This document shows positions 22,341 to 44,732 of a stretch of 48,284 bases of DNA, piece after piece; position 1 is the stretch's first letter, and every line of letters begins with the position of its first letter. Under the pieces are notes generated by a model. The model was not told where the DNA came from, did no database searches, and saw only the letters and a list, made by a program, of their open reading frames with translations. Both the position numbers and the translations under genes were made by a program. Source of the stretch: an uncultured Halobacteriales archaeon (lineage in GTDB: Archaea; Halobacteriota; Halobacteria; Halobacteriales; Hikarchaeaceae); the NCBI GenBank assembly GCA_964628745.1, contig CAZVOR010000002.1:1-48284 (forward strand), written 5' to 3'.

Positions 22341-23282
22341 TCACCGACCGTCCCCCCCGTCCGCCGCCCGTTCGGCGGCGAGCACGACGTTCTCGAGCAG
22401 CGCGGCGATGGTGACCGGGCCCACCCCGCCGGGGACCGGCGTGATGGCGCTCGCCCGCTCGAGCGCGCTCTCGAACTCGACGTCGCCGACCACCTCGTAG
22501 CCCCGCTCGGCGTCGGCGTCACCCGCGCCGGCTGCCGGCCGGCGCGTGGCGCTGATGTCGACGACGACGGCACCGTCGGCGAGCATCGACCCGTCGACGA
22601 GTCCCGGGACGCCGGCCGCGGTCACGACGACGTCGGCCCGCCGCGTGTGGGCGGCCAGGTCGCGCGTCCGGGAGTGACAGACGGTCACCGTCGCGTCGCC
22701 CGACGGGGCGTCGGCCAGCAGGAGGTTCGCGAGCGGCGCGCCGATGACGGGCGACCGGCCGACGACGGTGACGTCCCGGCCCGCCACCGACACGCCGTAC
22801 GACTCGAGCAGCCGGCGGACGGCGCCGGGCGTCGCCGGCACGTACCGCGGGTCGCCCGCCACGAGGCGGCCGAGGTTCTCGGGATGGAAGCAGTCGACGT
22901 CCTTGGCCGGGTCCAGGCGACTCCTGACGTCGAGCGTCGCGACGCGGTCCGGCAGGGGAGCCTGGACGAACACCCCGTGGACGTCCGGGTCGGCGCTCAG
23001 CCCGGCCACGGTGGAGAGGAGGCGCTCGGCGGGTGCGTCCGGGTCGACGCGGCGGTCCCGGCCCTCGATGCCGACGTCGTCGCAAGCGGCGTGTTTGAGC
23101 TCCACGAACCGCCGGTCCCCCGGGTCGTCGCTGGCGAGCACCGTCCCGAGCGTCGGGACGACACCCCGCTCCTCGAGGCGGCGGACGCGGTCGCGCACCG
23201 ACGCCCGCATCTCGGCCGCGACCGGCTCGCCGAGCAGTCGTTCGGCGGGGGACACACGCCGGCCATCGGCGGGGAGGGACAT
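22341..23282 (-). CDS. folD: Bifunctional 5,10-methylene-THF dehydrogenase / 5,10-methenyl-THF cyclohydrolase, paralogue 1 (divergent)
   Basis: The motifs are VQAPLP, DPAKDVDCFHPENLG, VVGRSPVIGAPLANLL, VTVCHSRT and ITPVPGGVGPVT. The substrate-site motif reads FVELKHAAC where FolD normally has YV..K.KA. Confidence 0.9.
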   Translation of the reverse strand: MSLPADGRRVSPAERLLGEPVAAEMRASVRDRVRRLEERGVVPTLGTVLASDDPGDRRFVELKHAACDDVGIEGRDRRVDPDAPAERLLSTVAGLSADPDVHGVFVQAPLPDRVATLDVRSRLDPAKDVDCFHPENLGRLVAGDPRYVPATPGAVRRLLESYGVSVAGRDVTVVGRSPVIGAPLANLLLADAPSGDATVTVCHSRTRDLAAHTRRADVVVTAAGVPGLVDGSMLADGAVVVDISATRRPAAGAGDADAERGYEVVGDVEFESALERASAITPVPGGVGPVTIAALLENVVLAAERAADGGDGR

Positions 23283-23373: not shown

Positions 23374-24564
23374 ATGCCGGTCCACCACGACGAGGACCTC
23401 CCCGCTGCGCTCGGGATGCTACTCGCGGGGATGCTCGTGCCGGCCCTCGTCGCGGCCGTCGGCCGGGACCTCCTGTCGATGTACCTGTCCGCCCGCGGGT
23501 TCGTCCACGTCTCCGCGGTCGTGTTCGGGGTCGTCGCGTGGGGGCTCATCGAGCGGCTGGACCTCGACCGGACGACTGTCCTCCTCGTCTCCATCGTGGC
23601 GCCGTGGCCCGTCCTGCTCGCGAGCCTCTTCGGCGTCCTCCTGCTCCACCAGGGGGAGCAGGTGCTCGCCGGCCCCGTCGCCGACGTCTTCACCTACCTC
23701 GCCGGGCGGTCCTTCGCCTCGCTCTTCGGCTACGGGGCCGACTTCGCGCTCGCGGGGGTCGGCGCGGTCGCCCTCTCGAAGTGGGCCGACGACCTGGCCG
23801 AGCGCCACGAGCGGGTCCCCGAGCCGCGGACCGTCCTCGCCGCCCTCGGGCTGGCCGCGGTCCTCGTCGGCCTCCTCGTCGGCGGCGCCAACCACGCCGG
23901 CGCGAGCTCGGCCGCGGTCTCGGCGGTCGCGCCCGGGCTCGACGACCGGCGACCGACGCTCGACGTGACGGTCGAGGGCCGCCCGGCCGAACTGCGGGTG
24001 ACGGCCGTCGCCCCGGACGGCACGAGCGCGACGAGGCGACTCTCGCGGGCCGACATGCGAGGAGGCACCGGGACGGCCCGCTTTCCCGTCCGGTTCGGCG
24101 ACGGGACGCCGCCCGGGTACCTGCCCGTCCGGTCCGGGACCTACCGGGTCCGGGTGACCTCGCTCGCCGGGGTGACCGTCGGCGCCGCGGCGCTCGTGGC
24201 GGACGGGCCGGCCGTGTCGATAACGGAGACCGTCGCCGCCTCGGGGCCCCTCACCTGGGACGACCCGCCCCGGGACGTCCACGAGCGGGGGCGGGACGAC
24301 ACGAAGGTCGGCATCGTCGTCGAGAACGGCGGGTCGTTCCACCGGGTCGTCGACGTGACGCTCGACGTGCCGGGTGGCGGCCACCGCCTGCGCGACGTCG
24401 TCCTGGCCCCCGGGGAACGGACCGGTGTCGTCTTCTCCCTCCCGGACGGCGCCGTCGAAGCGGTTCGGACGGAACGCGGCGGGACCGTGACGGCCAGCGT
24501 GGAACCGGTCGACGACCCCGACGGGCCGGTCTCGACCGTGGAGATCGAGCTCCCCGCAGAGTGA
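23374..24564 (+). CDS. Hypothetical membrane protein: an N-terminal polytopic region plus two beta-rich C-terminal modules
   Basis: Internal ATG of track ORF 22744..24564 (MPVHHDEDLPAALGMLLAGMLVPALV...). There are about 6 hydrophobic helices. After them come repeat-like segments (RVTAVAPDGT...YRVRVTSLAGV and VVDVTLDVPGG...TVTASVEPV) that suggest Ig-like or beta-sandwich domains. Confidence 0.65.
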   Translation: MPVHHDEDLPAALGMLLAGMLVPALVAAVGRDLLSMYLSARGFVHVSAVVFGVVAWGLIERLDLDRTTVLLVSIVAPWPVLLASLFGVLLLHQGEQVLAGPVADVFTYLAGRSFASLFGYGADFALAGVGAVALSKWADDLAERHERVPEPRTVLAALGLAAVLVGLLVGGANHAGASSAAVSAVAPGLDDRRPTLDVTVEGRPAELRVTAVAPDGTSATRRLSRADMRGGTGTARFPVRFGDGTPPGYLPVRSGTYRVRVTSLAGVTVGAAALVADGPAVSITETVAASGPLTWDDPPRDVHERGRDDTKVGIVVENGGSFHRVVDVTLDVPGGGHRLRDVVLAPGERTGVVFSLPDGAVEAVRTERGGTVTASVEPVDDPDGPVSTVEIELPAE

Positions 24565-24673
24565 CACCCGCGACCGGCGAGCGGCGGTCTCCGGACCGAC
24601 GCCCCTGCGGCCGGCTCCGGGGCGACTCGATGCTCAAGGGTTTTCCCGGTGGGCCGTGAGGCCCCGGCATCGG

Positions 24674-25666
24674 ATGGCATCGGGACGGCGGACGGCGGCC
24701 GCGCTGGAGCTGGGCGGACTCCGGGACCGACCGGTCGACTGGCTCCTGCTGACGGGCAGCCGCCTCTGGGTCGCAACCGGCCTCCTCGTGGTCGTCGCCA
24801 CCGTCGTGTGGGGCACCGTCCTCACGGGGCTGGCGCCACTGACGGAGCGGACGCCGCTACTGTTCCTGCTCTTCGCGCTCGTAAGCGGCAACGTCACGCT
24901 CATCACCATCGTCGTCTCCATCAGCCAGTTCGTTCTCTCGCGCCACCTGGAGTCACCGGGGGAGATCCGCGAGCAGCTGCGCGAGCTGGTCGGCTACCGG
25001 GAGGAGGTGGTCGAGGCCACGGGCGCGCGGGTCCTCCCCGTGACGCCCGGCGGCTTCCTGACGCTGCTGTTCCGGAGCGTCGAGGACGACGTGGACGCCC
25101 TGCGGGGCCACGAGTGGCAGGCCACCGAGGGACTCCTTCGCGAGGACCTGGAGCCGCTCGTCTCGGACCTCGCGGTGCACGTCCGGGACGTGGCCCGGCT
25201 GCTGGAGCACGGCGACACGGGGGTCCGGTACGCCCTGTTCGCGACCCTCGATACGAACTACTCCCGGTACTTCTACGGCATCTACCGCGTTCGAGCGGCC
25301 CACGGGGAGGACCTGCCCCCGTCGGTCGAGACCACCCTGGCCCGGCTGGAGCGCCACGTCGAGCAGGTGGACGTCGCGCGGCGGTACTTCAAGACCGTCC
25401 TCATCCAGTCCGAGCTGGCGTCGCTGTCGCGGACGCTGCTCTACATCGGCCTCCCGGTGCTGGTCGCGACGGTGGTGCTCACCCTGCTGTTCACCAACCC
25501 CGCCGAGCCGCCCGTCTCCCGGCCGGTGCTCGCGGTCGTCATCCCGGCGGTGGTGACGGCGGGCTTCGCCCCGCTGGTGCTGCTCGCCGCCTACATCGTC
25601 CGGCTGGCGACGGTCGTCGAACGGACCGCCGCGATGTACCCCTTCACCACCCGGTACGAGCCGTGA
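24674..25666 (+). CDS. Hypothetical membrane protein (2 TM, a helical soluble domain, then 2-3 TM)
   Basis: The track ORF begins with GTG at 24656, but I prefer ATG 24674 (MASGRRTAAALE...), which has a TTTT box at 24641-24644 about 30 nt upstream. I recognise no family. Confidence 0.65.
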   Translation: MASGRRTAAALELGGLRDRPVDWLLLTGSRLWVATGLLVVVATVVWGTVLTGLAPLTERTPLLFLLFALVSGNVTLITIVVSISQFVLSRHLESPGEIREQLRELVGYREEVVEATGARVLPVTPGGFLTLLFRSVEDDVDALRGHEWQATEGLLREDLEPLVSDLAVHVRDVARLLEHGDTGVRYALFATLDTNYSRYFYGIYRVRAAHGEDLPPSVETTLARLERHVEQVDVARRYFKTVLIQSELASLSRTLLYIGLPVLVATVVLTLLFTNPAEPPVSRPVLAVVIPAVVTAGFAPLVLLAAYIVRLATVVERTAAMYPFTTRYEP

Positions 25667-25742: not shown

Positions 25743-27134
25743 ATGTCAGGCAACGAGCCGCCAGAAGCCGAGGGGCGCGCCCACCCGAACCATCCGAACG
25801 TCGACCAGTCGGACCGAATCGTCCCGCGGAACCTGCGCCAGTCTGGCGACCCGGGCATCCAGATGCTCGTCTCGACCCGGGTCCGCAAGTCCCCGTTCTT
25901 CCACAAGTCCTTCGTGGAGAACGAGGCCTGGCGGTGCACGGTCTACAACCGCATCTACCACCCGCGGGGGTTCGTCAAGCCCGAGGACGGCGGGGCGATG
26001 GCCGAGTACGACCCGCTGGTCAACAAGGTGACCATCTGGGACGTCGCCGTCGAGCGCCAGATCCGCGTCGCGGGGCCCGACGCCGAGGACCTGGTGAACT
26101 ACGTCATCACCCGCGACGCCACCGACATCGAGCCGATGCACGGCCGGTACGTCATCCTCTGTAACGAGCGGGGTGGCATCCTCAACGACCCCATCCTGCT
26201 GCGGCCCTCCGAGGACGAGTTCTGGTTCTCCATCTCCGACTCCACGCTGATGCAGTGGCTGCAGGGCGTCAACGTCGGCATGGACTTCGACGTGGAGATA
26301 GACGAGATCGACGTCGCGCCGATGCAGATCCAGGGCCCGCTGTCCGAGGACGTCATGGTCGACGTGGTGGGCGAGGCGGTCAGCGAGATCCCCTACTACG
26401 GGCTGATGGAGGCCGAGATCGACGGCTGCGAGGTGCTCGTCAGCCAGACCGGCTTCTCGGGCGAGAAGGGCTTCGAGATCTACGTCATCGACGCGATGGA
26501 GAACGCCGAGCGGGTCTGGGACCCGGTCCACGAGAAGGTGGTCGAGTACGGCGGGATGCAGATCGCCCCCGGTCACCACCGGCGCATCGCCGCCGGCATC
26601 CTCTCGTGGGGCCAGGACATGGACCACGAGACCTCCCCGTTCCAGGTCAACCTCGGCTACCAGGTGCCCGACGACAAGGACGCCGACTACGTCGGCAAGG
26701 AGGCGCTCGAGGCCCAGCAGGAGCGCATCGAGGACGGCGAGTACCCGTTCGTCCACAAGCTCGTCGGCCTGAAGTTCGCCGGCGCGCCGGTCACCGACTA
26801 CGCGCCGGACTTCTGGCTCGTCTCCGACCCGGAGACGGGCGAGGAGTGCGGCTACATGACCTCCCCGTGGTACAACCCCGACCTCGACACCAACATCGGG
26901 CTGGCGTTCGTGCCGGCGGCGAAGCTGCAGGCCGCGACGGACGCGCCGCTCGACGACGACGTCTTCGACGAGGAGCTCGACCTCGAGTTCGCGGTCCACC
27001 TGCCCGACGAGTACGCCGAGGCGCCCGGCGAGCCCGTCTACGCCACCGTGTCCAAGGTGCCGTTCAAGGAGTCCGTCAACCCGAGCGCCCGCGAGCAGGC
27101 CAAGCTCCACGCCAGGGACGAGGCGAACGAGTAG
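25743..27134 (+). CDS. Aminomethyltransferase-fold (GcvT family) enzyme of the DmdA-like demethylase type, and a candidate THF-dependent N- or S-demethylase
   Basis: 463 aa. The segments SPFFHKSFVENEAWRCTVYNRIYHP and IWDVAVERQIRVAGPDAEDLVNYVITRD correspond to the GcvT pattern D.S....I.V.GPDA..FL. The segment SQTGFSGEKGFEIYV corresponds to the GcvT pattern TGYTGE.GFEI. From memory, it resembles the DMSP demethylase DmdA more than the canonical glycine-cleavage T protein. A TTAT box at 25713-25716 lies about 28 nt upstream. Confidence 0.85.
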   Translation: MSGNEPPEAEGRAHPNHPNVDQSDRIVPRNLRQSGDPGIQMLVSTRVRKSPFFHKSFVENEAWRCTVYNRIYHPRGFVKPEDGGAMAEYDPLVNKVTIWDVAVERQIRVAGPDAEDLVNYVITRDATDIEPMHGRYVILCNERGGILNDPILLRPSEDEFWFSISDSTLMQWLQGVNVGMDFDVEIDEIDVAPMQIQGPLSEDVMVDVVGEAVSEIPYYGLMEAEIDGCEVLVSQTGFSGEKGFEIYVIDAMENAERVWDPVHEKVVEYGGMQIAPGHHRRIAAGILSWGQDMDHETSPFQVNLGYQVPDDKDADYVGKEALEAQQERIEDGEYPFVHKLVGLKFAGAPVTDYAPDFWLVSDPETGEECGYMTSPWYNPDLDTNIGLAFVPAAKLQAATDAPLDDDVFDEELDLEFAVHLPDEYAEAPGEPVYATVSKVPFKESVNPSAREQAKLHARDEANE

Positions 27135-27289
27135 CGCGGCGACGGTTCCGGAGCCGTACCAGTGCGGTCGGACCCGCCGGGCGGTGAACTGGCCGTCGTG
27201 CGACGTCGGAGCGGTGCTGGCGGTGGGTCGTCGTGGGCGAACGAAACGATGCAGCCGTAGCGCTGTCGGGAGAGCAGCCCCCGGGGCTG

Positions 27290-27736
27290 CTACTTCGCGG
27301 GGACGGGCATCGCGTCGAGCTGCTCGAGGAGCGCGAGATTGTCGGACTCGAGCCACCGTTCGACGATCTGCTCGTCTTCGATGCGGTAGAACGCCATGTT
27401 GGAGCCCGAGACACGGTTGCCGGTGGGTTCGATCCCGCCGAATCGGCCCTCGTGGGTTCCCTCGAACGTGAACCGAACCGCCACCTCGTCCCCCTCGGCG
27501 ATCATGTCGTCTATCGTCACCGTCGCGTCGGGGAACGCCTCGTGGGCGACCTGGACGTGGCGTCGGAACCCTTCGAACCCCCGCGCCTCCTCGGCGGTCA
27601 GCGTCTCGTCCGACAGCGGGTCGTGGTTGACGACGTCTTCCGCGATCAGCTCCTCGAGGAGGTCCATCCGCTCCTCGTTGAACGCCTCCTCGTAGTATCG
27701 GCGCACTATCTCCTTGTTCTCGGCTGGTGAGGTCAT
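27290..27736 (-). CDS. SnoaL-like / ester cyclase (NTF2-fold) protein
   Basis: I prefer ATG 27736 (MTSPAENKEIVRRYYEEAFNE...) over 27766 because the GCTTAT box at 27769-27774 lies about 35 nt upstream of it. The NKEIVRRYYEEAFN opening and ...F.G.H.G.F.GI.PTGN.V is the classic pattern for this family. Confidence 0.8.
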   Translation of the reverse strand: MTSPAENKEIVRRYYEEAFNEERMDLLEELIAEDVVNHDPLSDETLTAEEARGFEGFRRHVQVAHEAFPDATVTIDDMIAEGDEVAVRFTFEGTHEGRFGGIEPTGNRVSGSNMAFYRIEDEQIVERWLESDNLALLEQLDAMPVPAK

Positions 27737-27886
27737 GGGTCTGTCCGCGCTCTGTACGCGCTCCATTGGGATAAGCTAGCAATCACCAATGCTATCACGG
27801 GTGCCGGGACGCCCCGGCGTCCGACGACGGTGTTCGCTCGCGAGGCCGCGACGTGGCTGGAAGGACGGCCCGCGAGACCCACCACG

Positions 27887-28750
27887 TCACTCCTCGAGCC
27901 GTCCCAGCCGCCAGTCCTCGGTGTCGGGCACCTGGTTGAACGTGTAGATGTGCACGCCGGCGATGCAGTACTCGGGGTCGTCGGCGTACGGCGCGAGGCC
28001 GTTGACGAGCTCGTCGGGCTTGTACTGGCCCCGGGAGCCCACCAGCTGGCGGACGAAGCCGAGGACGCCGGACGTCTTCCGCAGGAACTTGACCGAGTCA
28101 CCGACGCCGACCTTCTGGGAGATGCCGAGCAGGCGCTGGTACTTCAGCACGCCGGGGATGCCGACCTCGACGGGGAGGTCTACCCCCCGGTCCCGTCGGA
28201 TCGTCTCGAGCCAGCCCACGACGGCGGCCGGGTCGTAACACAGCTGCGTGACGATGTAGGTAGCGTACGGCGCCTTCTTGGCCATCGCCTCCTCGAGCGT
28301 CGCCTCGGAGAGGAACTCGTGGCCCTCGGGGTAGCCGGTGATGCCGACCTCGTCGAACGCGTAGCCGAGGTCGTCGAGGGTCGAGAGCAGGTCGTAGGCC
28401 GACTCGAACTCGCCGGCCGGCTCCTCGCGGTCGCCGCCGGGGACGAAGAGGTCCGTGACGCCGGCGTTGACGAGCCGGTCGGCGACGGACGAGAGGTGCT
28501 CCTCGTCCCGCACGTACCGCGCCGCGACGTGGGGGATCACCTCGTACCCCTCGGCCGACGCTCGCTCCGTCCACTCGAGGGTCGCCTCGAGGCCGAGCGT
28601 CGGCGAGGTGGTGATGGCGATCGCCGCGCCGTCGGGGAGGTGGCCCATCTGCTCGCCGAAGCTGTCGAACGGCATCAGCTCGAATCTCGGCTCGGCGAGC
28701 AGCGCGCGCACTCCGGCGTCCGTCGAGGCCGACCGCGTTCCGCGTGCCAT
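27887..28750 (-). CDS. metF: 5,10-methylenetetrahydrofolate reductase (MetF/MTHFR family)
   Basis: 287 aa. The segments FELMPF...IAITTSPTLG, VIPHVAARYV, DLFVPGGDRE, ITGYPEGH, ATYIVTQLCYD and GIPGVL are consistent with the MTHFR TIM barrel. Confidence 0.88.
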   Translation of the reverse strand: MARGTRSASTDAGVRALLAEPRFELMPFDSFGEQMGHLPDGAAIAITTSPTLGLEATLEWTERASAEGYEVIPHVAARYVRDEEHLSSVADRLVNAGVTDLFVPGGDREEPAGEFESAYDLLSTLDDLGYAFDEVGITGYPEGHEFLSEATLEEAMAKKAPYATYIVTQLCYDPAAVVGWLETIRRDRGVDLPVEVGIPGVLKYQRLLGISQKVGVGDSVKFLRKTSGVLGFVRQLVGSRGQYKPDELVNGLAPYADDPEYCIAGVHIYTFNQVPDTEDWRLGRLEE

Positions 28751-29088: not shown

Positions 29089-29982
29089 GTGACGCGCGTC
29101 CTGGACGGCAACGAGATCGGCGGCCGGATCCGCGACGAGCTCCGGGCGTGCCTCGACGAGCTCGGGGACGCCGGCGTCCGGCCGGGGCTGGCCACGGTGC
29201 TGATGAGCGACGACCCCGCCAGCGAGACCTACGTCTCGATGAAGCAGCGCGCGTGCGAGGAGCTCGGCATCGAGAGCGTCCACCGCGAGCTGGAGCCGGA
29301 CGCCCCCGCGTCGGCGCTGTTCGAGGCCGTCGAATCCCTGAACGCCGACGACGGGGTCCACGGCATCCTCGTCCAGATGCCCGTCCCCGACCACGTGGAC
29401 GAGCGCGAGGTCCTGCGGAGCATCGACCCCGCGAAGGACGTCGACGGCTTCCATCCCGAGAACGTCGGCCGGCTCGTCGCGGGCGAGCCGCGCTTCAAGC
29501 CGTGCACGCCCCACGGCGTCCAGAGGCTGCTGGCGGCCGCGGACGTCGAGACCGAGGGGGCCGAGGCCGTCGTCGTCGGCCGGTCCGACATCGTCGGCAA
29601 GCCGATGGCGAACCTCCTCGTCCAGAAGGCGCCGGGGGGCAATGCGACGACGACGGTCTGTCACTCGCGGACGGCCGACCTGGCCGAGCACACCCGGCGG
29701 GCCGACGTCCTGATCGCCGCGGCCGGCCGCCCGGAGCTCATCGACGGCTCGATGATCGCCGAGGGCGCGGCGGTCGTCGACGTGGGCGTCAACCGGGTCG
29801 ACGCGGACACCGAGAAGGGCTACGAGCTCGTCGGCGACGTCGAGTTCGAGAGCGCCAGGGAGAGGGCCGCCGTCATCACCCCCGTGCCGGGGGGCGTCGG
29901 CCCGATGACCATCACCATGCTCATGTACAACACGGTGAAGGCCGCCGGCCTGCAGGCGGGCGTTCTCCTCGACCTGCCATGA
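29089..29982 (+). CDS. folD: Bifunctional 5,10-methylene-THF dehydrogenase / methenyl-THF cyclohydrolase, paralogue 2 (canonical motifs)
   Basis: The start is GTG at 29089 (VTRVLDGNEIG...). The motifs are SETYVSMKQRACEE, VQMPVP, DPAKDVDGFHPENVG, VVGRSDIVGKPMANLL, TVCHSRT and TPVPGGVGPMT. Confidence 0.92.
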   Translation: MTRVLDGNEIGGRIRDELRACLDELGDAGVRPGLATVLMSDDPASETYVSMKQRACEELGIESVHRELEPDAPASALFEAVESLNADDGVHGILVQMPVPDHVDEREVLRSIDPAKDVDGFHPENVGRLVAGEPRFKPCTPHGVQRLLAAADVETEGAEAVVVGRSDIVGKPMANLLVQKAPGGNATTTVCHSRTADLAEHTRRADVLIAAAGRPELIDGSMIAEGAAVVDVGVNRVDADTEKGYELVGDVEFESARERAAVITPVPGGVGPMTITMLMYNTVKAAGLQAGVLLDLP

Positions 29983-31241
29983 GCCCGGACGGGACGCCGG
30001 CCGTCGGGTTCGCCGACGTCGAGGCCGCGCTCGAACGGCTCGACGACGACACGGTGGTCAAGCGGACGCCCGTCGAGCGGAGCACCTCGCTCGAGGCGCT
30101 CTCGGGCGCGGCGGCGGTGCACCTGAAGCTCGAGCACCTCCAGTGGACGGGGTCGTTCAAGCCCCGCGGGGCCTACAACCGGATCCGGGCCGCCCTCGAG
30201 GACGGGCCGGTCGACCGGGTCATCGCCGCGAGCGCCGGCAACCACGCCCAGGGCGTGTCGCTCGCGGCGACGAAGCTCGGCGTGGACGCGACCGTCATCA
30301 TGCCGCGGAACGCCCCGCAGGCGAAGATCGACGCCACCCGGAGCTACGGGGCGTCGGTCGACCTCGTCGGCCAGGACTTCCAGGCGGCGATGCGCCACGC
30401 GAAGGAGCTGGCGGCCGGCTCCGACGCGCTGTTCGTCCACGCGTTCGACGACCCGGCCATCGTCGCCGGGCAGGGCACCCTCGGCGTGGAGCTGTACGAG
30501 GACCGCCCCGCGGTCGACACCGTCGTCGTCCCGGTCGGCGGGGGCGGGCTCGTCGGCGGCATCGGGGTGGCGCTCGGGGAGCTCAGCCCGGAGACGCGAC
30601 TCGTCGGCGTCCAGGCCGAGGCCGCGGCGACGGTCCCCGAGAGCCTCGCCACGGGGACGCCGCAGACCCTGGCGTCGGTCGACACCGTCGCCGACGGCAT
30701 CGCGACGGGGGGCATCTCCGAGCTGACGCTCTCGCTCATCGAGCGGTACGTCGACGAGGTCGTCACCGTCAGCGACGCCGCGGTCGCCGAGGCCATCCTC
30801 CTGCTGATGGAGCGGGGAAAGCAGGTCGTCGAGGGCGGCGGCGCGGCGCCGGTCGCCGCCATCCTGGACGACGACCTGGACGTCGCGGGCGAGACGGTGA
30901 TGCCCGTGATAAGCGGCGGGAACCTCGACATGACGACCCTCCAGGCCGTGCTGGTCAACGCCCTGACCCAGCGAAAGCAGATCCTGCACCTCCGCGTGCA
31001 CATCAACGACCGGCCGGGGCGGATGGCGGAGATCTCCGGCGCCATCGCGAACCACGGGGCGAACATCCAGACGGTCCGCCACGACCGGGCGCTCGAGGAC
31101 CTCGACGTCGGCGAGGCGTACCTCACCTTCCAGCTCGAGACCAGCGGGATCGAACACGCCGAGCGCATCATCGAGTCCGTCACCGAGCTGGGCTACGAGG
31201 TCGACGTGGTCACGGCGGGCCGGGCCGGTCGAGCCGGGTAG
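29979..31241 (+). CDS. PLP-dependent threonine/serine ammonia-lyase (IlvA/TdcB type) with a C-terminal ACT-like domain
   Basis: Internal ATG of track ORF 29148..31241 (MSPDGTPAVGFADVEAA...). ATG 29979 overlaps the folD stop (ATGA, 29979-29982). The PLP lysine motif is TGSFKPRGA. AGNHAQGV and the Gly loop VPVGGGGL are present. The C-terminal segment LHLRVHINDRPGRMAEISG looks regulatory. Confidence 0.9.
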   Translation: MSPDGTPAVGFADVEAALERLDDDTVVKRTPVERSTSLEALSGAAAVHLKLEHLQWTGSFKPRGAYNRIRAALEDGPVDRVIAASAGNHAQGVSLAATKLGVDATVIMPRNAPQAKIDATRSYGASVDLVGQDFQAAMRHAKELAAGSDALFVHAFDDPAIVAGQGTLGVELYEDRPAVDTVVVPVGGGGLVGGIGVALGELSPETRLVGVQAEAAATVPESLATGTPQTLASVDTVADGIATGGISELTLSLIERYVDEVVTVSDAAVAEAILLLMERGKQVVEGGGAAPVAAILDDDLDVAGETVMPVISGGNLDMTTLQAVLVNALTQRKQILHLRVHINDRPGRMAEISGAIANHGANIQTVRHDRALEDLDVGEAYLTFQLETSGIEHAERIIESVTELGYEVDVVTAGRAGRAG

Positions 31242-31756: not shown

Positions 31757-33529
31757 ATGACAGACGGACAAGCGGACCAGACGGTCGGTGAAACGTCGGA
31801 GGGGCTCCAGGTGGAGCTGTTCCATCCGGAGTCGGAGCGGAAGCCGGGGGACACGAACATCGAGCGGTTCGGGTTCGACGTCCACCCGGTCGTCTTCCCG
31901 CTCGCCGCGTTGATGATCGTGCTGTTCGTCGCGGCGACCATCCTGCTTGGCGAGGGGGCGGCGGAGGTGTACAGCGGCATCTTCGACTTCATCAACGTCT
32001 ACTTCGGCTGGTTCTACGTCCTCGCGGTGAACGTGTTCATCGGCGCGCTGCTCTTTTTCGCCTTCAGCAAGTACGGCAAGATTCGGATCGGCGGCGTCGA
32101 GGCGGAGACCGAGTTCAGCACGTTCGCGTGGGTCGCCATGCTGTTCTCCGCTGGCATGGGGATCGGCCTGATGTTCTGGAGCGTCGCCGAGCCGATGTGG
32201 CACCTCGGCAGCGGCGGCGGGAACCTCTTCCCGGCCGAACCGATGTCCGGGGCCGGCGCCCAGGCCGCCATGGGCGTCACCTTCTTCCACTGGGGCTTTC
32301 ACCCGTGGGCGATCTACGGCCTGGTCGCCCTGGGGCTCGCCTTCTTCTCCTTCAACCGCGGGCTGCCGCTGACCTTCCGGTCGGTGTTCTACCCGCTGCT
32401 GGGTGACCGCATCTACGGCTGGCCGGGACACGTCATCGACCTGGTGACGGTCTTCGCGACGATCTTCGGGCTGGGCACGTCGCTGGGCCTCGGGGCCCAG
32501 CAGATAAACGCCGGGCTCGGCCTCACGACGGAGACCCTGACGGGCGCGAACCTGCTCCCGCAGGGGACCGGGTCGCAGGTGGCGATCATCGCGGTCATCA
32601 CCGCCATCGCGACCATCTCCGTCGCGGCCGGCCTGCAGCGCGGGGTCAAGCGTCTGAGCACGATCAACGTCTACATCATGTTGATCTTCCTGGCGTTCAT
32701 CCTCGTCGTCGGCCCGACGCTGAACCTGCTCGACGGCATCGTCCAGAACGTCGGCTTCTACCTGCAGAACCTGCTGTACATGTCCTTTTTCACCGAGAGC
32801 TTCCTCGGCGAGGGCGTGACGGGCGGTTACGAGAACTGGGCGCACTTCTGGACGGTGTTCTACTGGGGCTGGTGGATCGCGTGGTCGCCGTTCGTCGGCC
32901 TGTTCATCGCCCGCATCTCGAAGGGGCGGACCATCCGGCAGATGGTGCTGGGCGTGCTGCTGCTGCCGACGGCGTTCTCGTTCGTGTGGCTCGGCGCCTT
33001 CGGCGGCGCGGGCATCTACGCCCAGCAGGTGCTCGGCTCGGACATCTACACGGTCACCACGGAGACGGGGACCGCGTACGCCATGTTCGCGATGCTCGAG
33101 AGCTTCCCCCTGACGACGCTCACGTCGCTCGTCGCCGTGCTCCTGGTCACGACGTTCTTCGTGACGTCCTCCGACTCGGGGTCGCTGGTCATCGACCACC
33201 TGACCTCCGGCGGCAAGCACGACGTCCCGCGGACCCAGCGCATCTTCTGGGCGGTCACCGAGGGCGCCGTCGCGGCCGCGCTCCTGGTCGGCGGCGGACT
33301 CGAGGCGCTACAGACGGCGTCGATCACCACCGGCCTGCCGTTCGCCGCCATCCTGCTGCTGATGGTGTACACGGTCTACCTGGGGCTCTCGCGCGAGTAC
33401 GAGATCCTGCAGTCCGAGGAGTTCCGCGAGCGCATCGGCGAGATCAGCGAGCGGGGTGACGCCGAAGTCACCACCACCGGCGGCGACGTCGTCACCGGCG
33501 TGCGGGAAGGCACCGACCCGAGCGACTGA
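31757..33529 (+). CDS. BCCT-family (betaine/carnitine/choline) transporter, canonical motifs
   Basis: 590 aa and about 12 TM. The motifs are KIRIGG...EFSTFAWVAMLFSAGMGIGLMFWSVAEP and the Trp box WTVFYWGWWIAWSPFVGLFIARISKGRTIRQ. It has an acidic C-terminal tail. Confidence 0.92.
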   Translation: MTDGQADQTVGETSEGLQVELFHPESERKPGDTNIERFGFDVHPVVFPLAALMIVLFVAATILLGEGAAEVYSGIFDFINVYFGWFYVLAVNVFIGALLFFAFSKYGKIRIGGVEAETEFSTFAWVAMLFSAGMGIGLMFWSVAEPMWHLGSGGGNLFPAEPMSGAGAQAAMGVTFFHWGFHPWAIYGLVALGLAFFSFNRGLPLTFRSVFYPLLGDRIYGWPGHVIDLVTVFATIFGLGTSLGLGAQQINAGLGLTTETLTGANLLPQGTGSQVAIIAVITAIATISVAAGLQRGVKRLSTINVYIMLIFLAFILVVGPTLNLLDGIVQNVGFYLQNLLYMSFFTESFLGEGVTGGYENWAHFWTVFYWGWWIAWSPFVGLFIARISKGRTIRQMVLGVLLLPTAFSFVWLGAFGGAGIYAQQVLGSDIYTVTTETGTAYAMFAMLESFPLTTLTSLVAVLLVTTFFVTSSDSGSLVIDHLTSGGKHDVPRTQRIFWAVTEGAVAAALLVGGGLEALQTASITTGLPFAAILLLMVYTVYLGLSREYEILQSEEFRERIGEISERGDAEVTTTGGDVVTGVREGTDPSD

Positions 33530-35455: not shown

Positions 35456-35890
35456 CTACCCGTCGTCGCCGCGACCGAGCACCGTGACCGGGACGGCCGC
35501 CGTGCGGACGACCCGCTCGGCGGTGCTTCCCAGCAGGCCGCCGAGCTTGCCGCGGTAGCCGGCCCCCATCACGATGGCGTCGATGCCCTCCTCCTCGACG
35601 TAGTCGTTGATCCGTTCGTAGACGGCTGGGCCGACCGTCGTCGCGGTGACGCACTCGACGCCGGCCGCCTCGGCCAGCTCCGCCACCTCGGCGGTGACGC
35701 CCGCCCCGTACTCCCGGGCCCGGTCGAGCTGGTCGTCCATCGATTCGGTCATCCAGGGGTTACCCCCCTCCTCGACGACGTACAGTGCGTGGACCGTCGC
35801 GCCCAAGGCGGCCGCGAGGTCGACGCCGTGACGGGCGCCCCGCTCGGCGTCGACGCTCCCGTCCGTGGGAACGAGGATTCGCTCGTACAT
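35456..35890 (-). CDS. Universal stress protein (UspA family)
   Basis: The opening is MYERILVPTDGS. The ATP-binding motif is IVMGAGYRGKLGGLLGSTAERVVRTAAVPVTVL (G-2x-G-9x-G(S/T)). Confidence 0.9.
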   Translation of the reverse strand: MYERILVPTDGSVDAERGARHGVDLAAALGATVHALYVVEEGGNPWMTESMDDQLDRAREYGAGVTAEVAELAEAAGVECVTATTVGPAVYERINDYVEEEGIDAIVMGAGYRGKLGGLLGSTAERVVRTAAVPVTVLGRGDDG

Positions 35891-35969: not shown

Positions 35970-37829
35970 TCACTCGTTTCCGGGCGGTTCGACGTCGAAG
36001 TGCGCGCCCGCGGCGGGCAACCGGTCGGACGCCCGGCGGAGCAGCGACGCGTGCCCGCCCTCGTGGCGACGGAACGTGAGCGTCAGGCCCCCGAGCGCCA
36101 CCAGCGACAGGACGGCGAACGGGCCGCCGGTGAGCACCGCGAGCGCCTGCAGGGTCGCGCCGCCGCCGACCAGCAGCACCGCCACGGCGACGGCGCCCTG
36201 GAAGACGCCCCAGAAGGCGATGCTGGCGGAGGTGGGCGCGCGGCCCCGTTCCGTCGCGAGGATGGAGACGACGAGCGTCGAGGTGTCGGCCGACGTCGTG
36301 ATGAACACGACGATGAGGGCCAGGAACAGGAAGACGAGCAGGTCGCTGAGCGGCAGTGCGGCGAAGAGGGGGAAGCCGGAGACCGCCTCCGAACCGCCGT
36401 GCTCGGCGATGGCGCCGAGGATGTCGGCGCCGCCCGCGTGCTGCAGCGACAGCGACGTCCCCCCGAGCAGGAGGAACCAGACCATGGTGGCCGCCGAGGT
36501 GGCGACGACGCCCGTGAACACCACGGTCCGGACCCGCCGGCCCCGCGAGAGCGCGGCCAGGAACAGGCCGGCGAAGGGGGCCCACGAGAACCACCACGAC
36601 CAGTTCCAGACCGTCCAGTCGGCGACCCAGGCCGGCCCCACGTACAGGCTCATCGGCACGAAGTGCAGGGCGTAGCTGCCGAGGGCCGCCGCCCCGCGGT
36701 CGACCACGAACGAGAGCGGGCCGACGGCGGCCAGGATGACCGCGAACAGCCCGAAGAGGACGACGTTGAGCCCGGCGATGCGCCGGATGCCGCGGTGGAT
36801 GCCCGTCGTGGCGGAGAGGATGTAGATGAGGGTCAGCCCGCCGACGAACACCACCGGGCCGACCCCGCCCGCGGTCACGCCCCACTGGTAGCCGATGCCG
36901 GTGAGGAACTGCTGGCTGACGAGCGCGACCGAGGTGGCGATGCCGCCGATGGTGGCGAAGACGGCCAGCGTGTCGACGAGCTTCCCCCAGGCGGAATCGA
37001 GACCGTCGACGCCGAGGAAGGGCGTCAGGATGGTCGAGACCCGCAGGGGTGCGCCGCGCTGGTAGACGAAGTAGGCGATGGGGACGGCGATGACGGTGTA
37101 GGCGCTCCAGGCCGAGACGCCCCAGTGGAACAGCGCGTAGGTCAGCGCGCCCAGGAAGGCGCCCCCGGTCCGGGCCTCGGCGCCGAAGTACGGCGGCGGG
37201 GTCTGGTAGTGATAGAGCGCCTCGGCCGGGCCCCAGAAGACGATGCCGGCCGCGATGCCCGCGGTGAACACCAGCGAGAAGTACGTCGGGTAGGTGTAGC
37301 CCGGCTCGGCGTCCGGGCCGCCGAGCTTTACCGCCCCCCACGGCCCGAGCAGGAGGAACAGACAGTAGCAAACGGCGAGGAACATCGCCCCGAGGAAGAG
37401 CCAGCCGACGTCGTACAGCAGGACGTCCCGGACGGCGTTGACCGCCCCGACCGTGGTCGCGGGCGCCACCAGCTGCAGTCCGAAGAACAGTCCGAACACC
37501 GCCACGGGCACCCCGAAGGTGACCGCGTCCTGACGGTCGAGGAACTGTCCGAGGGCACCCCGCCAGGTGAGCCGTCGGATCCGGAGCAGGTACTCGGCCC
37601 CGGAGGGCGAGTCGCCGTCGTCGTCCCCGGCGGGCAGCACCGAGAGGTAGCCCAGGCCCGACCCGAAGAACAGCAGGGCGACGACCAGCCAGGTCTCGCC
37701 GCCGACCACCGAGCCGACGGCCGACGGGAAGAAGAAGCCCGACAAGACGACGGCCCCCGAGGCCATGCCGAGCGGCACCAGCGCCCGCTGGAGGAACCGC
37801 TCGATGGCGGTGGTGCCCTCGACGCCCAT
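35970..37829 (-). CDS. BCCT-family transporter, a divergent paralogue with an extra N-terminal two-TM extension
   Basis: 619 aa. The BCCT core segments are VKLGGPDAEPGYTYPTYFSLVFTAGIAAGIVFWGPAEALYHY and a degenerate Trp box WTVWNWSWWFSWAPFAGLFLAALSRGRRVRT. About 100 N-terminal residues, with 2 TM helices and a DDDGD loop, precede the core. Confidence 0.9.
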   Translation of the reverse strand: MGVEGTTAIERFLQRALVPLGMASGAVVLSGFFFPSAVGSVVGGETWLVVALLFFGSGLGYLSVLPAGDDDGDSPSGAEYLLRIRRLTWRGALGQFLDRQDAVTFGVPVAVFGLFFGLQLVAPATTVGAVNAVRDVLLYDVGWLFLGAMFLAVCYCLFLLLGPWGAVKLGGPDAEPGYTYPTYFSLVFTAGIAAGIVFWGPAEALYHYQTPPPYFGAEARTGGAFLGALTYALFHWGVSAWSAYTVIAVPIAYFVYQRGAPLRVSTILTPFLGVDGLDSAWGKLVDTLAVFATIGGIATSVALVSQQFLTGIGYQWGVTAGGVGPVVFVGGLTLIYILSATTGIHRGIRRIAGLNVVLFGLFAVILAAVGPLSFVVDRGAAALGSYALHFVPMSLYVGPAWVADWTVWNWSWWFSWAPFAGLFLAALSRGRRVRTVVFTGVVATSAATMVWFLLLGGTSLSLQHAGGADILGAIAEHGGSEAVSGFPLFAALPLSDLLVFLFLALIVVFITTSADTSTLVVSILATERGRAPTSASIAFWGVFQGAVAVAVLLVGGGATLQALAVLTGGPFAVLSLVALGGLTLTFRRHEGGHASLLRRASDRLPAAGAHFDVEPPGNE

Positions 37830-37933: not shown

Positions 37934-38008
37934 GTCGGCGCCGCCCGCCTCGGCCCCGGTCGGCGCCGCTGGCATCAGCCTCGGTCGGCGCCGCCCGCGT
38001 CGGCGTCG
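37934..38008. repeat. Imperfect 25-bp x3 tandem repeat (core GTCGGCGCCGC) spanning the stop codon of the K+ channel gene
   Basis: The units start at 37934, 37959 and 37984. The channel stop (TCA on the plus strand, 37975-37977) lies in the middle unit. On the coding strand the units encode ..GGAD.. tails. Confidence 0.6.
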
Positions 38009-39300
38009 CCCTCGTGCCGGACCGGGACCTGGTCGTCGGGGTCGGCGTCGTCGACGAGGGGGGCCGCCTCCTCGAGCAGCGACTCGGCGGTGGCCTCCTC
38101 GAGGACGGACCGTCCGAGCAGCCGGCCGGCGATGGCCATCGGGCTGACGACCTGGTCGGCGCCGACCCGCTCGAGCTTGCCGACGTGCTTGGGGTGGTTC
38201 GCCGCCGCGACGACGTGGACGGCGGGGTTCGCCTCCCGGGCCGCGAGGACCGCCAGCACGTCCCGGGCGTCGTCCCGGGTGGCGACGACGACCCCGCGAG
38301 CGGCGTCGATGCGCGCGTCGAGCAGCGCCCGCTCGTCGGTCGGGTCGTCCGTCAGGACGTTGACCTCGTCGTCCGAGAGCCGCGAGGCGACCTCGGAGTC
38401 GGGGGTCACCACGACCACGTCGACCTCCTCGGCCAGTTCTTCGAGCAGCGATTCCGTGATGTCGCCGTAGCCGAGGACGAGCACGTGGTCCTCGAGCAGT
38501 TTGAGTTCCGATGCGGTCATGTTTCCGAACGCGGCCGCCATCCGCGACTCTATCGCCGGGACGACCAGCGCGCCGATGGCGGCCGTGAACGCGCCGGTCC
38601 CGAGGAGGATGACCGAGAGCGAGAACCACCTCGCCTCCGGGGACAGGGGCGTGATGTCGCCGTAGCCGACCGTCGCGATGGTGACGACGACGTAGTACAC
38701 CGCGTCGCTCAGCGAGCCGACTCCGGCGAACTCCTCCTGGAGGGCGTAGGTTCCGACCGCGCCGTAGGCGACCACCCCGACGATGGAGAGCATCGACGCG
38801 ACCTGCAGCGGCGACAGGCCGAGCGACTGGTCGAACCGGTCGCGGTTCCACGCGAGCAGCGGCAGGGTGACGAGGACCAGCAACAGCAGCGGGACGTCGG
38901 TCGTCTGGAACGTCGTCAGGGGAAGCAAGGCCAGAAGCGGCAGGACCGCGACGGCCCCGTACCAGGCGATTCGCTTGCGCCGCTGCAGGAGCACGGTGAG
39001 GATGCCGAGCACGAAGGCGAACAGGACGCCGGCGAACCGGGCGTAGGTCTCGGCGGCCGGCAGCACGCCGGCCATCGGCCCGTCGAGGGGCGGCGTCTGG
39101 CCGAGGTTCGACAGCCCGGCGACGAACGACAGGACGGTGACCACGCCGGTCAGGAGGACCGTCGGCTTCGCCCCCGAGAACTGCCGCCAGTAGACGAGCC
39201 GGACGTTGTCGGTGTGGTAGAACAGCTGCTCGAGCGCCGACTGCTGCGGCGCGTCCGACGCGTCACCCGACACGGTCGGTGCTCGGTGGCGGCTCGGCAT
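37975..39300 (-). CDS. Potassium channel with a C-terminal RCK/TrkA-N domain
   Basis: Only the C-terminal 441 aa of track ORF 37975..40437 are credible, starting at ATG 39300 (MPSRHRAPTV...). The selectivity filter is TIATVGYGDITP. The Rossmann-type segment HVLVLGYGDITESL is followed by an acidic RCK domain. Confidence 0.88.
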   Translation of the reverse strand: MPSRHRAPTVSGDASDAPQQSALEQLFYHTDNVRLVYWRQFSGAKPTVLLTGVVTVLSFVAGLSNLGQTPPLDGPMAGVLPAAETYARFAGVLFAFVLGILTVLLQRRKRIAWYGAVAVLPLLALLPLTTFQTTDVPLLLLVLVTLPLLAWNRDRFDQSLGLSPLQVASMLSIVGVVAYGAVGTYALQEEFAGVGSLSDAVYYVVVTIATVGYGDITPLSPEARWFSLSVILLGTGAFTAAIGALVVPAIESRMAAAFGNMTASELKLLEDHVLVLGYGDITESLLEELAEEVDVVVVTPDSEVASRLSDDEVNVLTDDPTDERALLDARIDAARGVVVATRDDARDVLAVLAAREANPAVHVVAAANHPKHVGKLERVGADQVVSPMAIAGRLLGRSVLEEATAESLLEEAAPLVDDADPDDQVPVRHEGDADAGGADRG

Positions 39301-39371: not shown

Positions 39372-41084
39372 CTAGAACAGCCCGGTGACGGTGCCGTCCT
39401 CGTCGACGTCCATCCCGGCCGCGGCGGGCTCCGCGGGGAGGCCGGGCAGCGTCAGCACGTCGCCGGTGAGGACGACGAGGAAGCCGGCGCCCGCGGAGGG
39501 GTAGACCTCCTTGACCTCCAGGGTCCAGCCCTCGGGAACGCCCTTCAGGCTCGGGTCGTCGCTGAGCGAGTGGAACGTCTTCGACATGCAGATCGGGACC
39601 TCGTCGAGGCCGAGCCCGGTGAGCCGCTGGATGTCGTCCTCGGCGTCGCCGTGGTACTCGACGCCGTCGGCGCCGTAGATCTCGGTCGCGACGGTCTCGA
39701 TCTTCGACTCGATGGGGGCGTCCACGGCGTAGAGCGGCGCGAACGTGCTCTCCGACTCGGCGGCCTCGGTGAGCCGCTCCGCGAGGTCGACGCCACCCTC
39801 GCCGCCGTCGCTGAAGACGTTCGACTCGGCGGCCCGGACGCCGAGCTCCTCCTCGCAGTGCTCGATCACCGCGGCGATCTCCGCGTCGGTGTCGCCGGGG
39901 AAGCGGTTGACGGCGACGACGACCGGGACCCCGAACTTGGCGAGGTTCTCGGCGTGCTTCTCGAGGTTCGGCAGGCCCGCGCGGACGGCCTCGACGTCCT
40001 CCGCCTCGAGCGCGTCGAGGTCCGGCGGCCACATGTCCTGGCCGTGGTACTTGAGCGCCCGTACCGACGCGACGAGCGCGACCGCGTCGGGTTCCATCCC
40101 CCCGAACCGGCAGACGATGTTCATGAACTTCTCGGCGCCGAGGTCCGAGCCGAAGCCGGCCTCGGTGACGACGTAGTCGGCGAGGTGGGCGGCGACCCCG
40201 TCGGCCATCAGCGAGTTGGTGCCGTGGGCGATGTTGGCGAACGGGCCGCCGTGGACGAACGCGGGCGTGCCCTCGATGGTCTGGACGACGTTCGGCTTGA
40301 GCGCCTCCTTCAGCAGGATAGTGACGGCGCCAGTCGCCTGGATGTCGTCGGCCGTGACCGGCTCGCCGTCCTCGTCGTAGGCGACGATGATGCGGGAGAC
40401 GCGTTCCTTTAAGTCCGCGATGCTGTCGGCCAGACACAGCACCGCCATCAGCTCCGAGGCGGCCGTGAGGATGAAGCCGTCCTCGCGGGGCACGCCCGTT
40501 ATCTCGCCCCCCAGGCCGATGACCGTCTCCCGGAGCACGCGGTCGTTCATGTCGATCGCGCGGGGCCAGTTGACCCAGTTGACCGCGATGTCGAGGTCGT
40601 TGCCCTGCTTGATGTGGTTGTCCAGCATCGTCGAGACGAGGTTGTGCGCGGCGGTCAGCGCGTGGATGTCGCCCGTGAAGTGGAGGTTGATGTCCTCCAT
40701 CGGGAGCACCTGGGAGTAGCCGCCGCCGGCGGCGCCGCCCTTCACGCCGAAGACCGGGCCGAGCGAGGGCTCGCGGATGGCCACGAGCGCCCGCGTGCCG
40801 ATCTGGGCGAAGGCCTGGCCGAGCCCGACCGTCGTCACCGTCTTCCCCTCGCCCATCGGCGTCGGCGTCATCCCGGTGACGAGGACGAGCTTGCTGTCCG
40901 GCTCCCCGGCCGCGCGGATGCGCTCGATGGCGTCGAACGTCACCTTGGCCTTGTACTCCCCGAACTGCTCGAGGTCGTCCGCGGACAGGCCGTAGGGTTC
41001 GACCACGTCGACGATGGAGGCCTTCTCGGCGGCCCGGGCGATCTCGTAGTCGGTCGGCATCGAGGCCTCCTCGGAGGAGTTCAT
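39372..41084 (-). CDS. fhs: Formate--tetrahydrofolate ligase (10-formyl-THF synthetase)
   Basis: 570 aa. The motifs are VTGMTPTPMGEGKTVTTVGL, VHGGPFANIAHG and GFGSDLGAEKF. A TTCATAA box (minus strand, about 41110-41116) lies about 29 nt upstream of ATG 41084. ATG 41060 is an alternative start. Confidence 0.95.
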   Translation of the reverse strand: MNSSEEASMPTDYEIARAAEKASIVDVVEPYGLSADDLEQFGEYKAKVTFDAIERIRAAGEPDSKLVLVTGMTPTPMGEGKTVTTVGLGQAFAQIGTRALVAIREPSLGPVFGVKGGAAGGGYSQVLPMEDINLHFTGDIHALTAAHNLVSTMLDNHIKQGNDLDIAVNWVNWPRAIDMNDRVLRETVIGLGGEITGVPREDGFILTAASELMAVLCLADSIADLKERVSRIIVAYDEDGEPVTADDIQATGAVTILLKEALKPNVVQTIEGTPAFVHGGPFANIAHGTNSLMADGVAAHLADYVVTEAGFGSDLGAEKFMNIVCRFGGMEPDAVALVASVRALKYHGQDMWPPDLDALEAEDVEAVRAGLPNLEKHAENLAKFGVPVVVAVNRFPGDTDAEIAAVIEHCEEELGVRAAESNVFSDGGEGGVDLAERLTEAAESESTFAPLYAVDAPIESKIETVATEIYGADGVEYHGDAEDDIQRLTGLGLDEVPICMSKTFHSLSDDPSLKGVPEGWTLEVKEVYPSAGAGFLVVLTGDVLTLPGLPAEPAAAGMDVDEDGTVTGLF

Positions 41085-43881: not shown

Positions 43882-43960
43882 GCGCCCGGCCCGCGGGCGA
43901 ACCTCCCCGGACCGGGGTGACCGGTCGCATTACAACCACGGCGGACGAACCCACACACGA

Positions 43961-44731: not shown

Positions 44732-44732
44732 C

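Follow-up and report, generated by a model that had tools for sequence, protein, structure and literature searches.

A stretch of 48,284 nucleotides from an uncultured Halobacteriales archaeon (assembly GCA_964628745.1, contig CAZVOR010000002.1, positions 1 to 48,284 of the forward strand), hereafter the window, encodes a stand-alone protein of 463 amino acids with the GcvT fold, hereafter the target, and close to it a flavoprotein of the MetF family, together with folate enzymes, transporters and a flavoprotein resembling dimethylglycine dehydrogenase (DMGDH) (Table 1). The target falls in the DmdA-like branch of GcvT-fold proteins and belongs to neither DmdA nor GcvT. It is probably an undescribed enzyme that moves the first methyl group of an osmolyte onto folate, glycine betaine being the most likely donor. 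The window has a G+C content of 72%, an acidic proteome and a TFIIB gene, and the close homologues of its genes are all from Halobacteria; these features and the FolD subtype place it in that class. Real genes were told apart by their third-position GC content (GC3), and Pfam scans were run on the open reading frames (ORFs) with a coding signal. A previous sequence-only reading had placed metF about 750 bp from the target with only a SnoaL-like gene between them, which proved accurate: 753 bp separate the end of the target from the MetF-like ORF, and the SnoaL gene is the sole ORF in the interval. The same reading had described a DMGDH-ETF operon as adjacent; these genes (41347-45701) do belong to the same cluster but, lying 14 kb from the target, are not strictly adjacent to it.

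Table 1. Genes of the window discussed in the text, and gene content of three Rubrobacteraceae loci (L128, L134 and L135, each with its own coordinates).
Feature	Coordinates	Strand	Evidence or gene content
FolD paralogue 1 (methylene-THF dehydrogenase/cyclohydrolase)	22341..23282	-	Pfam THF_DHG_CYH, THF_DHG_CYH_C
Membrane-protein-like ORFs (two), directly upstream of target	23377..24564, 24656..25666	+	Strong coding signal
Target: GcvT-fold, DmdA-like, stand-alone, 463 aa	25743..27134	+	ATG start; GC3 0.98; Pfam GCV_T 135 bits
SnoaL-like protein	27290..27766	-	Pfam SnoaL 135 bits
MetF-family flavoprotein, S6MTHFR-like	27887..28750	-	Pfam MTHFR 30.8 bits; PDB 7XG9 best
FolD paralogue 2	29089..29982	+	NCBIfam PRK14167 540 bits
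PLP-dependent serine/threonine dehydratase (PALP+ACT)	29979..31241	+	Pfam PALP 269 bits + ACT
BCCT-family transporter 1 (betaine/choline/carnitine type)	31757..33529	+	Pfam BCCT 597 bits
Universal stress protein (Usp)	35456..35890	-	Pfam Usp 106 bits
BCCT-family transporter 2	35970..37829	-	Pfam BCCT 431 bits
TrkA-type K+ channel	37975..39300	-	
Formate-THF ligase (FTHFS)	39372..41084	-	Pfam FTHFS 821 bits
DMGDH-like flavoprotein, 844 aa	41347..43881	+	Pfam DAO + FAO_M + GCV_T + GCV_T_C
ETF beta	43961..44731	+	Pfam ETF / ETF_alpha scan
ETF alpha	44733..45701	+	Pfam ETF / ETF_alpha scan
Rubrobacteraceae locus L128	734-13244		FolD, GTP cyclohydrolase I, 5-formyl-THF cyclo-ligase, DMGDH-like, PALP, DmdA-like, MTHFR, FTHFS, GcvT-like, DAO
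Rubrobacteraceae locus L134	4583-17288		BCCT, HSP20, DMGDH-like, DmdA-like, MTHFR, FTHFS, FTCD_C, GcvT-like, DAO, then IclR regulator
Rubrobacteraceae locus L135	4137-15384		BCCT, HSP20, DMGDH-like, DmdA-like, MTHFR, FTHFS, FTCD_C, then IclR

The target carries a Pfam GCV_T domain with a weak GCV_T_C match, and both motifs quoted for it by the sequence-only reading, KSPFFHKSFVENEAWRCTVYNRIYHP and WDVAVERQIRVAGPDA, are found in its sequence. It had been judged by eye to be nearer DmdA than GcvT, and profile and structure-database searches bear this out: among NCBIfam models it scores 235 bits with DmdA (NF009133) against 152 bits with GcvT PRK00389 and 129 bits with TIGR00528, and a phmmer search of the PDB ranks DmdA 3TFH (6.8e-43) before Thermotoga GcvT 1WOO (3.3e-38). 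A stand-alone GCV_T fold, retention of the folate-binding Glu and Tyr of the G-F-E-I-Y motif, the lack of a fused flavin adenine dinucleotide (FAD) domain and greater closeness to DmdA than to GcvT, DMGDH or SoxA place the target in the DmdA-like branch of tetrahydrofolate (THF)-dependent methyltransferases.

In the databases searched, genes of the target family are annotated as 'glycine cleavage T protein', and close relatives are labelled 'glycine cleavage system protein T / aminomethyltransferase'. These names speak for a housekeeping T protein of glycine cleavage, a reading that is effectively refuted by the other evidence. The target falls below the GcvT equivalog cut-offs of both TIGR00528 (129 vs 235.85 bits) and NF010093 (112 vs 459 bits). 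On neighbour-joining (NJ) trees the haloarchaeal proteins lie inside a large DmdA-like radiation, clustering with DmdA-like proteins and separated by a long branch from GcvT and from the DMGDH C-domain. Neither gcvH nor gcvP was detected by Pfam in the window ORFs with a coding signal, and neither is among the recurrent neighbours in a census, made by unbiased clustering of all ORFs, of 121 haloarchaeal loci. Grouping with housekeeping GcvT, and gcvH/gcvP genes beside orthologues, were among the observations that the sequence-only reading had named as counting against itself, and neither was encountered.

The target is also distinct from DmdA, to which it is about 33-35% identical. The equivalog cut-off of the DmdA model NF009133 is 410 bits; true DmdA-clade representatives score 420-479 bits and other DmdA-like clades 292-344 bits, whereas the target reaches only 235 bits. 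On the NJ trees 3TFH shares a clade with P0213, P0232 and P0252, and the haloarchaeal proteins, themselves a clade with bootstrap 100, fall outside it. A tryptophan, W171, has been singled out as the key contact in DmdA that is specific for dimethylsulfoniopropionate (DMSP) (PMC7487153); it corresponds to W197 in the 3TFH chain (motif SGWSKQGGYEVY) and is replaced by Phe in the target (motif TGFSGEKGFEIY) and by Tyr or Phe in Rubrobacter orthologues. Genes for the later steps of DMSP demethylation are likewise missing, as the sequence-only reading had stated of the window: no AMP-ligase, acyl-CoA dehydrogenase or enoyl-CoA hydratase was found by Pfam in window ORFs with a coding signal, and no dmdBCD-like gene (acyl-CoA ligase, dehydrogenase, hydratase) recurs among the neighbours in the 121-locus census. 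These observations together make it very unlikely that the target is a divergent demethylase of DMSP or of another sulfonium compound (e.g. dimethylsulfonioacetate), that is, a functional DmdA in haloarchaea and Rubrobacter, even though DmdA is its best-scoring characterised family and sulfonium methyl transfer is the sole chemistry proven for this branch. Uptake of DMSP into cells by betaine-type systems also counts in favour of a sulfonium substrate.

An alignment of the haloarchaeal and Rubrobacter orthologues reveals a set of invariant residues that differ from those of DmdA. Y72, H73, R75, H278 and R280 are invariant in both groups where DmdA has L, L, A, L and E, so that the motifs YHPR and HHRR of the haloarchaeal and Rubrobacter proteins stand in place of LLPA and LIER of DmdA. 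Further invariant positions, with the DmdA residue in brackets, are T97 (Q), Q195 (A), Y218 and Y219 (FF) and E241 (Q). As judged from sequence, these residues are consistent with a substrate pocket that is common to the two clades and unlike that of DmdA, which is a lead rather than proof. An AlphaFold2 (AF2) model of the target, of moderate quality with a predicted local distance difference test score (pLDDT) of 71 and a predicted template modelling score of 0.74, was searched with Foldseek. The comparison with DmdA that the sequence-only reading had proposed ranks 3TFH first, with a template modelling score (TM) of 0.75, but GcvT follows nearly level at 0.70-0.72, and because the scores are nearly equal the search lacks the power to separate DmdA from GcvT. 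The core fold of the model is confident, and the pLDDT drops below 50 at residues 64-76 and 277-294, which are the segments containing YHPR and HHRR; the two segments may be mobile, substrate-gating loops.

The MetF-like neighbour resembles an unusual methylenetetrahydrofolate reductase (MTHFR). In the PDB it matches S6MTHFR (7XG9) with 107 bits (E-value 8e-30), the Thermus MTHFR with 43 bits and the human and yeast enzymes with at most 25 bits, so that S6MTHFR (about 32% identity) is its closest solved relative, ahead of the type 1-3 MTHFRs. S6MTHFR of Sphingobium SYK-6 is the partner of LigM; it oxidises 5-methyl-THF and barely reacts with NADH, and it is the founding member of type 4 among the MTHFRs, whose signature motifs are L48-P49 with R78, F215/C219 and P268-F269 (PMC11868366). 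Of this signature the MetF-like protein keeps P49 and F269. We infer that its reaction runs from 5-methyl-THF to 5,10-methylene-THF. The gene is likely to be accessory, since the housekeeping MTHFR of Haloferax has been proposed to be the Mer homologue HVO_1937 and not a member of the MetF family (PMC8305020). Together with its Rubrobacter counterparts the MetF-like protein makes up a clade nearest to S6MTHFR, with S-P for L-P and Y-T-F-N for Y-P-F-G; by these sequence features the clade may be a further MTHFR subtype beyond the four types recognised to date (PMC11868366).

The association of the two genes is widespread in haloarchaea. A scan of species-representative genomes recovered at least 308 stretches encoding target relatives, and neighbours were counted in the best 80 of these loci, a neighbour being a homologue within 10 kb of the target. 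The 80 loci are all from Halobacteria and encode target relatives of 75-84% identity; over the homologue search and genome scan together, haloarchaeal matches are 75-87% identical to the target. The MetF-like gene is a neighbour in 63 of the 80 loci, often directly adjoining the target on the same strand, and many of the loci without it are short contigs. A reverse search of metagenomes from the MetF-like protein returned 51 loci, with the target beside the MetF-like gene in 31; the remainder are mostly contigs too short to show the target, L108 being the one clear exception. Other genes of the window also recur within the 80 loci: DMGDH-like genes in 34, often as two paralogues; BCCT transporters 1 and 2 in 28 and 13, respectively; FolD paralogues 2 and 1 in 25 and 16; Usp in 25; and FTHFS in 17.

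The census of 121 loci gives a similar picture, with FolD in 48 loci, the PALP dehydratase in 41, BCCT transporters in 41 plus 10, DMGDH-like proteins in 34, FTHFS in 19, serine hydroxymethyltransferase (SHMT) in 15, and PabB-like and AstE_AspA-type proteins in 13 each. Taken together, the recurrent neighbours make up a betaine-to-pyruvate pathway plus the oxidation of one-carbon (C1) units. Rieske oxygenases, BHMT (Pfam S-methyl_trans) and MttB are absent, by Pfam, from every window ORF with a coding signal, in agreement with the sequence-only reading, and from the recurrent neighbours in the census.

The pairing extends beyond Archaea. Seven metagenome loci, in which close relatives of the encoded proteins are named Rubrobacter or Rubrobacteraceae, contain homologues of the target (38-39% identity) and of the MetF-like protein (40-44% identity to that of the window). 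Their genes are co-linear on one strand, with FTHFS directly downstream of the MetF-like gene. Since both proteins have diverged to 38-44% identity from their counterparts in the window, the module spans Archaea and Bacteria, and the linkage of target and MetF is conserved in two distant phyla. In L128 and L134 the DmdA-like protein, the DMGDH-like protein and a split oxidase plus T-protein pair amount to three predicted demethylating activities for the three methyl groups of betaine, and the branch for C1 oxidation accompanies them.

Several considerations favour the transfer of a methyl over a methylene group by the target. It has no FAD domain and no H-protein partner, and with gcvH and gcvP absent from the window and the recurrent neighbours it has no evident way to make a methylene unit. 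Its relatives of known function (DmdA, LigM and DesA) are methyltransferases, and a MetF-family partner would be superfluous if the target released methylene-THF directly. The sequence-only reading had argued from the position of metF beside a demethylase that the product is methyl-THF, and the likeness of the MetF-like protein to S6MTHFR, the linkage in haloarchaea and the Rubrobacteraceae operons all strengthen that argument. It is therefore held with high confidence that the target is a methyl-THF-forming demethylase of an onium compound.

Alternatively, the target could be a T-protein-like partner that forms methylene-THF by capturing the C1 unit set free by a separate oxidase or by the DMGDH-like enzymes, with MetF working reductively to supply methyl-THF to the split MetE methionine synthase, and the linkage of target and MetF merely reflecting a general island of folate and C1 genes. 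The neighbourhoods are indeed rich in folate genes (FolD, SHMT, PabB, DHFR, GCH1), the separate GcvT-like and DAO pair of Rubrobacter shows that split oxidase/T-protein systems exist, some type-4 motif residues are missing from the MetF-like protein, and a need for methyl-THF is predicted for the split MetE of haloarchaea (PMC7857596). However, the DMGDH-like proteins have a fused GCV_T domain of their own, no stand-alone oxidase is consistently found beside the target, the MetF-like protein is much nearer the oxidising S6MTHFR than the reductive MTHFRs, and the tight pairing is kept in both Archaea and Bacteria, with FTHFS in the same operons. This arrangement is accordingly considered quite unlikely.

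With the target as a methyl-THF-forming demethylase, the cluster can be read as a route from an imported osmolyte to pyruvate. The BCCT transporter would bring in a methylated onium compound as osmolyte, glycine betaine being the likeliest, and the target would move one methyl group directly to N5 of THF in a redox-neutral SN2 reaction, giving dimethylglycine and 5-methyl-THF. The S6MTHFR-like MetF protein would then oxidise 5-methyl-THF to 5,10-methylene-THF, with electron-transfer flavoprotein (ETF) or quinone as candidate electron acceptors, and FolD and FTHFS would take the carbon on to formate with a gain of ATP, FTHFS running in reverse from 10-formyl-THF. DMGDH-like flavoproteins with ETF would convert dimethylglycine to sarcosine and sarcosine to glycine, the remaining methyl groups leaving as methylene-THF, and SHMT and serine dehydratase would turn glycine into pyruvate. 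On balance, the best explanation overall is that the target works in this betaine-to-pyruvate mechanism as a stand-alone methyltransferase that depends on THF and belongs to the DmdA-like branch.

The identity of the osmolyte is a separate matter, and the target could demethylate a different quaternary amine, such as choline, carnitine, gamma-butyrobetaine, proline betaine or trigonelline, to give methyl-THF, the nearby DMGDH-like genes then serving a parallel or downstream route. BCCT carriers move several such compounds, creatininase, AstE_AspA and DUF8073 genes are present in some loci, and the substrate-pocket residues are uninterpretable without a ligand-bound structure. No catabolic genes for choline, carnitine or proline betaine recur among the neighbours, however, and the recurring DMGDH-like, SHMT and serine dehydratase genes fit a glycine betaine route specifically, which leaves another amine unlikely. 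Glycine betaine is accordingly preferred, with somewhat better than even confidence, as the physiological substrate. Whether the family should be called a glycine betaine:tetrahydrofolate N-methyltransferase with a dedicated methyl-THF oxidase is finely balanced. The sequence-only reading, that of a GcvT-fold, THF-dependent betaine demethylase, thus gains computational support, its methyl-THF product and its substrate being inferred from sequence and gene context.

A number of observations weigh against this interpretation. The activity assigned to the target family is predicted from sequence and gene context, and we know of no characterised precedent for methyl transfer from a quaternary ammonium to N5 of THF. 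The transporter does not fix the substrate, because DMSP, choline and carnitine also enter through carriers of the BCCT family. As the searches covered gene neighbourhoods, these genomes could encode BHMT or a Rieske enzyme at other positions. In the window the MetF-like gene is convergent with the target, on the opposite strand, and is not co-transcribed with it; as the SnoaL gene is also on that strand, the three genes do not form one operon here. The MetF-like protein does not carry the published three-motif type-4 signature, having S for L48, Y for R78, I for F215, V for C219 and T for P268, and these deviations are common to the haloarchaeal and Rubrobacter copies (with L for R78 in Rubrobacter, and V or I for C219). 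Since several type-4 residues are missing, the direction of its reaction and its electron acceptor can be assigned only tentatively. The phylogeny proposed by the sequence-only reading does put the target outside the DmdA clade and away from GcvT, but the deep nodes of the trees have bootstrap values of 7-27, including that for the sisterhood of the haloarchaeal and Rubrobacter clades. Finally, Haloquadratum walsbyi (L037, L063) has the target, at 80-82% identity, with no MetF-like gene within 10 kb, and, unlike most other genera, with no BCCT or DMGDH-like gene within that distance; betaine reportedly did not enhance the growth of this species (PMC3102087).

Comparison with characterised systems clarifies what is distinctive about the proposed enzyme. 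The target shares with DmdA from Pelagibacter (3TFH) a stand-alone GcvT fold, the folate-binding Glu and Tyr and a presumed redox-neutral methyl transfer to N5 of THF, and DmdA is its best match in both sequence and structure; the target differs in having about 40 extra N-terminal and about 60 extra C-terminal residues, in lacking a dmdBCD context, and in its archaeal and actinobacterial hosts, DmdA being alphaproteobacterial. With GcvT it has in common the three-domain fold and the conserved Asp of the WDV motif, and it is set apart by its scores below the equivalog cut-offs, by the lack of an H- or P-protein context and by its separate branch on the trees. Glycine betaine is demethylated in known systems by BHMT, by the Rieske oxygenases GbcAB/BmoAB and by the corrinoid-dependent MtgB. 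These enzymes convert betaine to dimethylglycine, as is proposed for the target, and are accompanied by downstream DMGDH, sarcosine oxidase and folate genes, but they have no sequence or fold kinship with the target, and the proposed route would require neither O2 nor corrinoid nor homocysteine. The nearest parallel in logic is the LigM/DesA and S6MTHFR system of Sphingobium SYK-6, in which a GcvT-fold methyltransferase makes 5-methyl-THF and a dedicated MetF-family enzyme oxidises it (PMC11868366). LigM and DesA, however, are very distant from the target (E-value about 1e-4) and act on aryl methyl ethers, and the MetF-like protein, at about 32% identity, departs from S6MTHFR at L48, R78, C219 and P268.

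The remaining genes of the loci have more varied distributions. The stop codon of FolD paralogue 2 overlaps the start of the PALP+ACT dehydratase gene (ATGA, 29979-29982), which implies co-translation. Neither of the two ORFs that precede the target on its strand matches a Pfam or NCBIfam model, and both were dropped as operon partners, each having a homologue near the target in one of the 80 loci. The SnoaL gene was likewise dropped as a core member of the pathway, with a homologue (31-43% identity) near the target in nine of the 80. After the target and MetF, the commonest neighbour is an HTH_10/BAT-type regulator of about 220 amino acids (e.g. L025:20205-20867), found in 52 of the 121 census loci; it may control the cluster, and the window itself shows no clear copy of it. 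Usp (26 of 121) and the TrkA-type K+ channel (22 of 121) recur beside the BCCT genes, suggesting that an osmoregulation block is joined to the catabolic genes.

Two further groups of genes were noted in the neighbourhoods. In some loci (L081:15319-18403; L115:7647-8606) DUF8073, AstE_AspA-type and creatininase-family genes lie between MetF and the DMGDH-like gene, which hints at a side entry, e.g. from creatinine or creatine to sarcosine. Genes for folate biosynthesis and salvage also recur, namely PabB-like, DHFR, GTP cyclohydrolase I and 5-formyl-THF cyclo-ligase (e.g. L109:15253-16836; L081:9369-9878; L128:1582-2840), and are consistent with a high folate demand of the pathway.

The sequence-only reading was aware of no GcvT-fold betaine demethylase, and a full-text literature search found no description of one; the corpus searched lacks most subscription journals, so the absence is unproven. 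Related observations have been reported. In SAR11/Pelagibacter the DmdA-like paralogue SAR11_1265 lies beside metF, and the oxidation of methyl-THF has been the subject of speculation there; another SAR11 aminomethyltransferase lies beside a betaine transporter and was given a possible role in glycine betaine metabolism (Sun et al. 2011, PMC3160333). A phylogeny of DmdA published in PeerJ placed the Haloquadratum homologues CAJ51984 and CCC39909 in a 'non-DmdA' group with F171 and proposed no function for them (PMC7487153). How haloarchaea start to break down betaine has been a question since 2011, when their DMGDH-like genes were noticed next to BCCT transporters (PMC3102087).

What is new in the proposal is the donor class of this GcvT-fold, THF-dependent methyltransferase and the MTHFR clade that partners it. 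These haloarchaeal clusters contain no known betaine demethylase, and a folate-dependent methyltransferase, if the assignment is true, would fill that gap. It would be a fourth way of starting betaine catabolism, distinct in mechanism from the others, widespread in Halobacteria, with at least 308 genome matches, and present in desert-soil Rubrobacteraceae. The target would be the first enzyme with the GcvT fold shown to demethylate a quaternary ammonium, adding such donors to the sulfonium compounds and aryl ethers used by the DmdA/LigM class, and the newly described group of methyl-THF-oxidising MTHFRs would be enlarged to Archaea and Actinomycetota. In salterns and desert soils the gene would also provide a marker of betaine turnover.

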